Origin: Octopus vulgaris
Taxonomy: Eukaryota
Length of the DNA stretch: 64,000 nt
NCBI GenBank assembly: GCA_951406725.2
Contig: OX597838.1
Span: 18,352,001-18,416,000, forward strand
Direction of reading: 5' to 3'
Positions 15,108-35,781 of the stretch are shown here, piece after piece. The position numbers were made by a program, and so were the translations under genes. The notes under the pieces are model-generated. The model ran no database searches. It saw only the letters and a program-made list of their open reading frames with translations, and had not been told where the DNA came from. Every line of letters starts with the position of its first letter. Within the stretch, counting starts at the first letter, position 1.

Positions 15108-15194
<87 letters not shown>

Positions 15195-15406
15195 GAAAAA
15201 AATTATCCTACATTAGATGTTAATTTAACAGTATTCACTTCCGGACTCTCAGTGTACGAGGGTTTTTAGTTCGAATCACACGTGTCTCGAGATGGGCTAG
15301 AGAGTTTCTATTTTGGATATATTTGGCGTACTTAATTGTGCTCATGACTAAGTGTTCGCTCCTTCCATGGGTATAAGTAAGTATTTCACCTATTTCTTTG
15401 CCGCAT

Positions 15407-15467
15407 TTATCACTGATGAAGGGAAGGTTCTTATGAACTAACTCTGAAATCGGGTCCGATATGGTAA
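15407..15467 (+). ncRNA. Type I hammerhead ribozyme motif inside a (TA)n-flanked insert (~15192-15612)
   Basis: ttatca-CTGATGA-aggg aa ggttc ttat gaact aa ctct-GAAA-tcgg gt ccga-TA-tggtaa. All three stems pair; cleavage triplet AUA. Confidence 0.8.
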
Positions 15468-15634
15468 TAACGGGATTTTTTTAGAAATTTCTGTCGGCTT
15501 TCTTCGAAACGCGTGCTTGTGGTGATAAATTACATGTTTATTGACGTTGTGTCTATTTTCGGCATATTTTGGTATTAGAAATTTTTTCTTTTGCCCTTAC
15601 TTATAGATTGTATATATAAATATATATGTATTTA

Positions 15635-31829: not shown

Positions 31830-32914
31830 GCACGAGTATGTATGTATATGCATATGTTTATGTATATTTGAATAGATAGGAAGATACATACATACATACA
31901 TACATACATACATACATACATACATACATACATACATACATACATACATACATACATACATACATACATACATACATACACACACGCGATAGATGATATC
32001 GAAAAATAAGATTCTGAAATAAGCAAACCACAGCTACTCTGTCATTGACAAAAAAAAAACGGGTGGAAGAAAAGGAAAGAAATCTTAGAATGGTTTATTG
32101 GAGATTACTAAACATAAGCAAAATGTATTTGAAGAACTAATAGGAAAATAAATGGTTTTGTACCAATGTAGGTCTTTGAAGAATGAACTTCCAATACCAC
32201 CAACATATATATCCGTAATTCCCGGTGGAATAATTTCTTTGGTAAAAAATACAAGATTTCTTTTTCTGTCGGTCTTTGCCGCTTTTTTTTTTGTGTGTGT
32301 GTGTATACAGACTATTGATTAATACATAGACACGCACATACAGACACACACGCACACGTACACATACATACGCACAAACACACACAAATATGTACAAACG
32401 CACTTACACACAAACACAAACACACACACACACACAAACACGCTCTTTCTCTCTCTCTCACACACACAAATACACACACGGGGATTGTAAAGGTTTGCTG
32501 TTTCATTTTTTGGCTCACTTCTGCTTTGTTCCTGTATAAAAGGGGTAGATTTTAAAAATATGTATAAATTCATATATACATAAACTTAATATAGTTATCT
32601 TGTTTAAGACGGTCAGCTAGTTTGAACGTTAGCACACCGGGAAATGCTTTATGTTCTAAGTTCAAATTCCGCCGAAGAATTTAAACGAAGGATGAGTAAC
32701 CTCTTCCTCCATATTGCAGGCCTTGTGCCAAAACTGGAATTCACCATCACCATTAATATTATATTAACCATAATATTTCATACCTCGCCAGCGTATTTGA
32801 CCTCACCTGGTCAAATACAAAATTAATTATTTACAAACATAAGATCCATTAATACATTGCCCTCGCTTAATTCTTGTTTCTCAATTTACACTCACTTGGC
32901 TCCTTTTCCCTCGT

Positions 32915-33600
32915 TTAACCCTTTCGATACCAACCCACCCGAAACTGCCTCTGGCTCTGTAGTACAAATGTGTTGTTTTCAAAAGTTTTGAATTAAAACC
33001 ATCCACCAAATCTTAGTCACAATTTATGTTCCTAACACTAGCTGAATGATAACTAAGTTTTTTTATACTAAATTCTTTGTTATATTTAACCTTTTTGACA
33101 CCAACCTGGCTGAAACCACCTCTGGCTCTGTAGTACAAATGTGTTGTTTTCAAAAATTCTGAATTAAAATCTTCCACCAAAACTTAGTCTCAAGTTATAT
33201 TCCTAACACTAGCTTAATGATAACTAAGTTTTTTTTTTACAAAATTCTTTGTTATATTTAACCTTTTTGATACCAACCCACCTGGAACTGCCTCTGGCTC
33301 TGTAGTACAAATGTGTTGTTTTCAAAAGTTTTGAATTAAAACCAGCCACCAAATCTTAATCACAATTTATATTCCTAACACTAGCTTAATGATAACTAAG
33401 TCTTTTTTTACTAAATTCTTTGTTATATTTAACCTTTTTGATACCAACCCACCTGAAACCGCCTCTGGCTCTGTAGTACAAATGTGTTGTTTTCAAAAAT
33501 TCTGAATTAAAATCTTCCACCAAAACTTAGTATCGAGTTATGTTCCTAACACAAACTTAATGATAACTAAGTTATTTTACTAAATTCATTGTTATATTTA
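32915..33600 (+). repeat. Tandem repeat, 4 units of ~171 bp, each beginning TTAACC
   Basis: Units start at ~32915, 33086, 33258 and 33429. Each contains CCTCTGGCTCTGTAGTACAAATGTGTTGTTTTCAAAA. Confidence 0.9.
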
Positions 33601-33796
33601 AAATAATTAAAAGAAACACAGAGCATCTAATTTTGTTGCATGGACCCCACACAAAAAATCTTGTATGGAATGGCATGGACGATATAGGACCCCGTTGAGA
33701 ATCGCTGGATTAAACAATTAGAATTACATTTGTAAAGAAGAGAGAAAATCTTTGCTTTATTGGAAATTATATATATAATTAGAAGCAATGACAGAA

Positions 33797-34497: not shown

Positions 34498-34546
<49 letters not shown>

Positions 34547-34554
<8 letters not shown>

Positions 34555-35107
34555 AGTGAATTGAAGAAATGGAGTTGAACGAAGATTGAACAGAAATCGT
34601 TTTATTGCATTCTACACGTGTTTCGAAAGCCACAATTTACCAAATTCCGATTGAATAAGGAGACCATATTGTGTCTTTCTCTTCAGGAAGAAATAGGAAA
34701 TCCGTTGGAAAAAACAAAAACAGAACAGAGGCGGAGCAAAACAAATCGAACGAGGCTCCTAAGAGCCCATGGCCAAACTCTGTTTGGCCATTCCAACGGA
34801 TTTCCTATTTCTTCCTGAAGAGAAAGACACAATATGGTCTCCTTATTCAATCGGAATTTGGTAAATTGTGGCTTTCGAAACACGTGTAGAATGCAATAAA
34901 ACGATTTCTGTTCAATCTTCGTTCAACTCCATTTCTTCAATTCACTAATAATATTAAAATTCAATTATCTGCACCAACGCATGGTTGCAACACCATATGG
35001 TTGTACCTCCAACCGTGCTGTCTTCTGCTGTGATTTTTGCTACCAAGGTATCGGTTAAACTTTTGATTAATCTGCAACAAGATTATTCATCTTTCTATTT
35101 CACAAAA
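34547..35107. mobile_element. (TA)n-inserted family H1 element: perfect 164-bp inverted arms, each with a hammerhead ribozyme motif
   Basis: Arms at 34547-34710 and 34791-34954, an 80-bp spacer, and a unique 3' extension homologous to 5985-6130. Confidence 0.85.
34812..34891 (+). ncRNA. Type I hammerhead ribozyme motif with long stem II (mirror copy on minus strand at 34610-34689)
   Basis: ttc-CTGAAGA-gaaagacacaat...attgtggctttc-GAAA-c acgt g-TA-gaa, then AATAAA at 34895. Loop III is the palindrome ACGT. Confidence 0.8.
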
Positions 35108-35781
35108 TATATATATATATCAAGCAAGGTACGCAAGCCTAAAACGGAAATTATTTAAAAGTTGAACTGAGAACGGGTATGTATTTAGATACGTGTTCAT
35201 ATATTAAATCATTCGACTCTCACTTAAATGTTCTTTCTTTCGTGTGTGGAAAATATCTTTAGGGAAATTTTCCAATGTCATTATAATAACGATTCCACAG
35301 CATTTACAACCGAATCAGTTCTGGTTTAGCGAATTGTTTACAAGTGTTAGTAGCAAGGATGAAATCTCTTTGGAATATTCTTCTTTTGATAGGAATTGGA
35401 TCCTTTTTTTTTTTTTTTTTTGCTATTTCATCTTTTGCATTGGATCTGTAATATTATTTTCTTTCTCTATTTATTCATGGCATGTTTGATGTATCCGTTT
35501 ATTCATTGGTCCTACCATACTCATGGCTAACGTTTTTCCAATGTAATCTAATATCAAAAGGTTTTTGGTAACCCTATCCAAACCATGTTCAGACTCACTT
35601 CCGCTTCCAGTAACTGATCTTTACAACCATGCCAGTCTTGTAGGGTTTTCTTTCTTCTCCTGGAAGTGGCGGTTTTTTTGTTGGCGGGGGGGGGTGGTGT
35701 TAACTTAACCATTGAAATAGTATTGCTATTGAAGTTATATATATATTAGCAGCCACGTTATGGGTCTCTCTAATATATGTA

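Follow-up and report, generated by a model that had tools for sequence, protein, structure and literature searches.

How does a (TA)n tract in the genome of Octopus vulgaris come to hold two outward-facing hammerhead ribozyme motifs within a perfect palindrome? The locus occupies positions 34547-35107 of the window (the whole 64-kb stretch of DNA analysed), and an initial annotation read it as a young, probably non-autonomous or retrozyme-like derivative of a Penelope-like element (PLE), in which self-cleavage would compete with double-stranded RNA. Its sequence and that of its relatives identify it as an insertion in (TA)n, truncated at the 5' end and joined head to head, that derives from a protein-coding, Hydra-like PLE. 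It probably arose by twin priming at two fixed sites, A and B. Positions within the repeat are given as U coordinates, U1 being window position 34791.

Architecture of the locus

The two arms of the palindrome (34547-34710 and 34791-34954) are complementary without mismatch over 164 bp and stand 80 nt apart, as first described. The intervening 80 bp have the length originally reported but do not form a separate spacer: 69 bp are a further part of the left arm, and 11 bp are a junction insert (Table 1). This insert creates the small hairpin already noticed in the spacer, which lies at 34769-34791, and we infer it to be a templated end-joining scar. The one-sided extension is also present and can be identified as the element's tail, whose sequence in tandem copies runs on into a leader of ~46 nt and then into the start of an ORF; as a whole, the tail is unremarkable in folding stability (z -1.56). 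The locus contains no ORF, as had been stated, but only this copy is non-coding, by 5' truncation. No target-site duplication is readable in the left-flank (TA)n tract (34500..34546). A 171-bp tandem repeat in four copies (32914-33601) lies ~950 bp to the left of the insertion.

Table 1. Features of the insertion and of a related insertion in the same window
Feature	Position	Strand	Remarks
Older-family insertion, head-to-head A+B, one complete hammerhead	5680..6130	.	core 5813-5807, minus strand; 71-78% identical
(TA)n target tract, left flank	34500..34546	.	sequence
Arm A, outward-facing; pLTR copy, U-68 through U164 (fixed end A)	34547..34779	-	233 nt
Hammerhead type I motif, arm A	34607..34692	-	core 34686-34680; predicted cut after GUA 34615-34613
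Junction insert, fold-back copy of the end of arm A	34780..34790	.	11 bp
Arm B; pLTR copy, U1 through U317 (fixed end B)	34791..35107	+	317 nt
Hammerhead type I motif, arm B	34809..34894	+	core 34815-34821; weak stem I
Stem II, arm B	34822-34833/34865-34876	+	
GAAA, arm B	34877-34880	+	
Palindromic CACGTG, arm B	34881-34886	+	
Predicted cut, arm B hammerhead	34888/34889 boundary	+	
AATAAA, directly 3' of the predicted cut	34895..34900	+	older sister family has AATAAA too
Tail, between fixed ends A and B	34955..35107	+	~150 nt
(TA)n target tract, right flank	35108..35120	.	sequence

The hammerhead motif

Both strands of the window were searched with a strict type I hammerhead descriptor, which gave four matches in 64 kb, at 34815 (+), 34686 (-), 5813 (-) and 15413 (+). 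The first two, which read CTGAAGA / stem II / GAAA / CACGTG / TA, are the type I cores that the initial annotation had placed in the arms. The motif scan envisaged there gave a divided result: the descriptor recovers the cores, whereas in the Rfam scan no hammerhead model matched at E<=10, and the nine matches obtained were miRNA, snoRNA or cis-reg models. In the locus copy, stem II has 11 pairs over 12 positions and stem I has three contiguous pairs only; loop III is the palindrome CACGTG, and the cleavage triplet is GUA. The palindromic loop III and a cut after GUA at 34888, both part of the earlier description, are supported as a predicted position. In this copy, the hammerhead fold is less stable than the MFE structure by 5 kcal/mol.

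Genome-wide, the 17-nt 3' core occurs 2,336 times without mismatch, compared with 0 for its reversed control; thus, the motif is not due to chance. Across 11 natural copies (~3-4 lineages), the core is invariant and stem II pairs in 89% of cells, compared with 37-55% on sliding. Four of the 12 stem II pairs are altered on both sides, a covariation that comes from ~3-4 lineages. Loop III remains self-complementary across natural copies, in keeping with the dimeric mode in which PLE hammerheads are described as acting (PMC4209133). In the subfamily of the locus, an allele at U104 (window 34889-34894) weakens stem I to three pairs, and stem I pairs better in sister subfamilies and in an older family, which suggests that the recent spread occurred without need for a strong stem I.

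The window contains two other hammerheads. In the older-family insertion at 5680-6130, the changes in stem II are compensatory and stem I has 6 bp. A further (TA)n-flanked segment (15193-15610) is unrelated; it carries a more canonical type I hammerhead at 15413, with stems of 6/4/5 bp and a CTGATGA core, and is likely a fragment of another PLE family.

The parent element

Copies 97-100% identical to the arms extend upstream into a 3' UTR of ~590 nt, a GIY-YIG-type endonuclease (EN) and a reverse transcriptase (RT). The junction between pLTR and ORF has 30 matches at 27 loci in the genome, and of these 27 full-length loci, all inspected, 17 hold an intact ORF of 895-904 aa that combines RT motifs with a GIY-YIG-type C-terminus. 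The PLE origin proposed in the initial annotation is therefore upheld, since longer copies of the same repeat carry the RT and EN ORF, and the copy number of the core and its linkage to RT/GIY-YIG ORFs, by which that origin was to be checked, agree with it. The same evidence speaks against a non-autonomous or retrozyme-like insertion, since the repeat runs into 3' UTR, EN and RT ORF and 17 of the 27 loci are intact. The claim of youth also holds: arm B differs from at least 12 other copies at a single position in 310, and arm A is identical to 9 of the 114 arms compared. In one full-length copy (L068), the ORF encodes 904 aa and starts ~46 nt past the end of the tail. Upstream and downstream pLTRs are near-identical inside one insertion. 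No full-length intact copy with the exact haplotype of the locus was found; the closest is L068, with 8 differences in 313.

For the protein of the family ORF (P0001), Pfam returned 0 families and a PDB profile search no relevant match. Homologs of P0001 numbered 115 among 8,000 scored, one of them from Argonauta; identity to an RVT_1-bearing homolog is 34% (E 1e-74), and Pfam detected RVT_1 in 1 and GIY-YIG in 1 of 21 aligned homologs. The protein contains SDKT (DKG to DKT) and YRDD, and its EN stands at the C-terminus, with none N-terminal. CCHH is absent from the EN, which in most copies reads CNLC..E..N..CPH; in L068, F replaces the last C. The RW motif aligns with RWK/RWR of homologs but reads RWL. 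Homologs keep the CxCX5C linker between RT and EN, of which nearly all copies inspected keep only the first Cys; one variant has CxC, and none has the full motif. The unit is 3.62-3.73 kb long, and because CxCX5C is lost and the unit exceeds 3 kb, the family is called Hydra-like here and not a strict Hydra member.

The RT-EN linker (L068:6480-6950 and other copies) bears an Asn/Ser-rich insert, with CxCX5C gone and (TA)n targeting kept; N-rich inserts are described for rotifer Penelopes (PMC3846280). A TA-rich flank lies beyond almost every outer arm end in 70 insertions. The loss of the linker cysteines in a family that still targets (TA)n argues against the linker being required for microsatellite targeting.

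Fixed ends and pairing of the arms

The first 100 core matches on C1 correspond to 70 consecutive insertions, a sample that favours long A arms because it was chosen through an exact 17-mer at U87-103 in one arm. Its 126 outer arm ends fall at A (U147-170) in 61 cases, at B (U305-320) in 64 and elsewhere in 1. The two fixed ends are ~150 nt apart, and both are TA-like and merge into the target. The insertions comprise 44 inverted pairs of an A and a B arm, 11 solo B, 9 solo A and 6 complex cases, with 0 clean inverted pairs of any other kind. When the set was enlarged to 114 loci, 113 of them with arms at >=85%, 77 of the 78 clean inverted pairs were A+B. An older sister family (71-84% identical; 465 exact core copies in the genome) follows the same plan: of its 41 unique arm ends, 40 lie at A or B, and its pairs are A+B in 13/13 cases; further old copies are alike. 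Both arms carry the core in 25 of the 70 C1 insertions, and the twin ribozyme of the locus is a by-product present in only some insertions.

Origin of the inverted arms

Under twin priming, the EN of the element would nick both target strands in (TA)n, and each nicked end would prime reverse transcription at a fixed internal site on the RNA, A or B. The two cDNAs would stop independently, and their inner ends would be joined head to head; at the locus, both would have run beyond the hammerhead, leaving the motif twice. Priming from both strands, a single RNA template and end-joining repair are the parts that we infer, and a single template would need strand displacement or a multimeric RNA. 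End-joining characteristically leaves junctions with short overlaps or templated inserts, and the junctions between arms have overlaps of 1-10 nt or short templated inserts. In vitro, the protein of an anole PLE nicks AT-rich DNA on both strands and extends each of them, and two internal RNA start sites bound the tail of that element (PMC11167929).

The inverted arm could instead arise by self-priming or fold-back at a palindrome, with EN resolution at site A and later one-sided deletions. This alternative, which we regard as unlikely, has precedent in parts of the literature: palindromes found at inverted junctions led to a self-priming proposal for PLEs (PMC3846280), and the tail has been explained as a product of resolution by the EN (PMC8557442). 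In the octopus family, junctions do cluster at short palindromes, and the locus itself has its 11-bp fold-back insert. Among 41 two-segment pairs, the arms end within 10 nt of each other in 6, and 4 of these near-symmetric pairs turn at the identical base, as fold-back predicts. In the remainder, the A arm reaches further upstream in 26 and the B arm in 9; arm lengths are uncorrelated (rho 0.007), and the arms share no common sequence in 12 of the 41. One-sided deletion of a perfect palindrome could yield unequal arms, but the longer A arms and the 12 non-overlapping pairs would need an extra deletion from a B-begun cDNA. The 9 solo A insertions and the B-arm lengths, which form a graded series down to 30 nt, also stand against it.

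The alleles of the two arms bear on the same choice. Over 59 pairs with an overlap of >=60 bp, arms diverge at 78 of 11,189 sites (0.70%), compared with 4.2% after shuffling. Arms of subfamily S1 agree in 293 of 299 polymorphic comparisons (42 pairs; 30% differ in the shuffled control) and those of S2 in 52 of 56 (17 pairs; 40% differ in the control). Private variants occur in both arms in 18 cases and in one arm in 34. The agreement and the shared private variants point to one template for both arms, although gene conversion between arms could also yield such variants and contribute to the agreement; fold-back explains shared alleles trivially. In one insertion (L027), three linked family alleles distinguish the two arms, which thus represent different family haplotypes; this is at odds with fold-back and suggests that two templates are sometimes used in one insertion. 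Taken together, the fixed ends, A+B pairing, uncorrelated arm lengths and shared alleles favour twin priming over fold-back.

A further reading, developed from that of the initial annotation, is a non-autonomous retrozyme- or SINE-like family in which the palindrome itself is the unit and is retained as a switch between cleavage and dsRNA. It would account for a locus with a type I hammerhead and no ORF, and retrozymes have been proposed to derive from pLTRs (bioRxiv 2026.07.22.740005). We consider it very improbable, since the turn point varies among copies, so that the palindrome is not a replicated unit, the parent is coding and the ribozyme would be sequestered within the duplex. None of the 70 C1 insertions contained short tandem hammerhead monomers; one same-strand core pair ~235 bp apart occurs (L153). 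By the varying turn point, coding parent, lack of short tandem monomers and duplex, the retrozyme-like family is largely refuted.

Perfect arms could also betray an assembly artefact, and four public contig sets lack a junction-spanning contig: the junction (34787-34789) has zero depth in contigs of X1, X4, X3 and X9 (X9 is RNA by guess), whereas the family has very high depth in 4/4 DNA or unlabelled runs. One X4 contig enters the right end of the element by 15 nt, too short for a bridge. The gap fits a private or polymorphic insertion, loss of the palindrome or filtering, and proves nothing. Against an artefact stand 78 clean inverted pairs with differing junctions, unequal arms and a strict A+B rule, the average arm divergence given above, the same plan in older families and the presence of the tail on one arm only, which make this explanation highly unlikely.

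Inner ends at the predicted cut

Inner ends were counted as single-base arm starts, genome-wide, among ~2,370 arms, with U121 alone as control. Inverted junctions numbered 20 at U98 (30 of 35 matches examined), 15 at U99 (23/23) and 20 at U100 (30 of 31), compared with 3 at U121 (18/18). The excess at U99 alone has p 0.004; in the pooled cut-site test, 6 insertions are counted twice. In 12 insertions, neither arm starts more than 6 nt from the cut, compared with 0/3 at U121. Partners of U99 arms start at U95 or later in 5 of 7 cases for A and 7 of 7 for B, whereas the corresponding figures in the C1 sample are 1/28 and 13/40; the scarcity of partners reaching further upstream is expected from a template with its 5' end at U99. 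The excess adjoins the palindromic loop III, and ends also gather at U81-84 and U273-275, at palindromes or structures. On these counts, which hint at cleavage in cells without proving it, the hammerhead likely cuts some of the templates at 34888|34889, but it is not required for every insertion. Most arms read past the cut site, which points to uncut or religated RNA as the usual template. In the anole study, RNA reads ending at the cut were absent, and elements with dead ribozymes still inserted (PMC11167929).

A broader proposal would be that inverted repeats and tails of PLEs arise by programmed twin priming, in which a single ribonucleoprotein opens (TA)n on both strands and begins one cDNA at A and the other at B of the same RNA, and that the hammerhead cuts this RNA in the germ line frequently enough for the two cDNAs occasionally to end by run-off at the scissile bond; we judge it evenly balanced between right and wrong.

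Partial tandems (L203-L219) have upstream copies that begin near A (U149-189) at 6 of 19 loci and near the cut (U87-107) at 3; these starts may reflect collision with A-primed synthesis, or template ends. A tandem array (L201/L202; G000:C1:119.514-119.527 Mb) consists of three full 3.62-kb units and a truncated one, two with intact ORFs. Its units differ by 0 substitutions, compared with 26-128 to other full-length loci, which fits more-than-unit copying of one circular or multimeric template, or homogenisation by the assembly. That cut-and-ligated unit-length circles served as the template for such identical units is possible, if doubtful.

Read-through RNA

The initial annotation supposed that self-cleavage would compete with dsRNA in a read-through transcript. 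Such a competition is unlikely, since read-through from either flank transcribes the antisense arm first, and the duplex is thus predicted to win over cleavage. In the folding prediction, stem II has an equilibrium probability of ~1e-56, compared with 0.99996 for the pairing of arm with arm. In read-through RNA, the palindrome would, by this model, form a 164-bp duplex rather than a switch; such a duplex might be the ADAR or Dicer substrate that the initial annotation suggested. No host gene was recognised by inspection among the 38 ORFs at 25-45 kb of the window. Extrapolating 25/70 from C1, some hundreds of near-perfect twin-hammerhead hairpins would exist genome-wide.

Significance and comparison with known systems

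A young family with more than 2,000 ribozyme-bearing arms offers a natural experiment on the inverted repeats and tails of PLEs and on hammerhead cleavage in vivo. The A+B rule connects the pair of RT start sites observed in vitro with the structure of genomic copies, and strand-specific start sites are predicted from it. The pile-up at U98-100 predicts an exact cut, and the intact ORFs make both the start-site and the cut predictions testable. Inverted copies, the tail and twin hammerheads on opposite strands are already published for PLEs.

L1 twin priming likewise begins a cDNA on each target strand and leaves a 5' inversion sealed through microhomology, but its second priming site varies and little sequence is duplicated. 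The octopus PLE, by contrast, has two fixed sites, and its arms may overlap by more than 1 kb.

The comparisons that follow draw on parts of the published studies. By its motifs, the octopus family is placed near the Hydra clade of C-terminal EN+ PLEs, which includes Hydra-1_Obim (Craig et al., 2021; PMC8557442): both have a single ORF with RT followed by a C-terminal GIY-YIG EN, DKT, no CCHH, CxxC and CxH around the E and N of the EN, a pLTR hammerhead and a (TA)n target. The Hydra clade has CxCX5C and RWK and is generally below 3 kb (PMC8557442), whereas the octopus family has one Cys, RWL and 3.62-3.73 kb with Asn/Ser-rich inserts. Compared by eye, the start of the protein and the hammerhead differ from those of Hydra-1_Obim, and the family departs from Hydra in linker, size and tail length. 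Partial tandems, an inverted 5'-truncated copy and an optional tail characterise PLE architecture (PMC8557442, PMC3846280), and all occur in the octopus family. The PLE tail, however, is given as 30-40 bp (PMC8557442), compared with ~150 nt here, where a tailed arm meets a tail-less one in 77/78 pairs.

Pairs of minimal hammerheads (min-HHR) on opposite strands, as at the locus, are reported for Schistosoma PLEs at distances of 100-700 bp (Cervera and de la Pena, 2014; PMC4209133), which also share the long helix II, short helix I and palindromic helix III; the parts of that study covered neither map the ends of the pairs nor propose how they form. Poseidon PAc of Anolis (Frangieh et al., 2024; PMC11167929) shares with the octopus family an AT-rich target and a hammerhead upstream of the start sites; as proposed here, its tail lies between two internal RT start sites, and both target strands undergo nicking and extension. 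The anole element belongs to another clade, its start sites are in the ORF whereas those of the octopus family are in the leader, and a strand difference in start site is not reported in the part covered (PMC11167929). In the openly licensed literature surveyed, partly in extracts, no A+B pairing or twin-priming model was stated for PLEs; older subscription Penelope papers may hold one.

Non-LTR retrozymes (bioRxiv 10.64898/2026.07.22.740005) likewise carry a type I hammerhead related to those of pLTRs. They are non-coding tandem repeats with the hammerhead in at least two consecutive units, whereas the octopus locus is a head-to-head fragment of a coding element, and the regular tandem units in its family are the 3.6-kb coding units.
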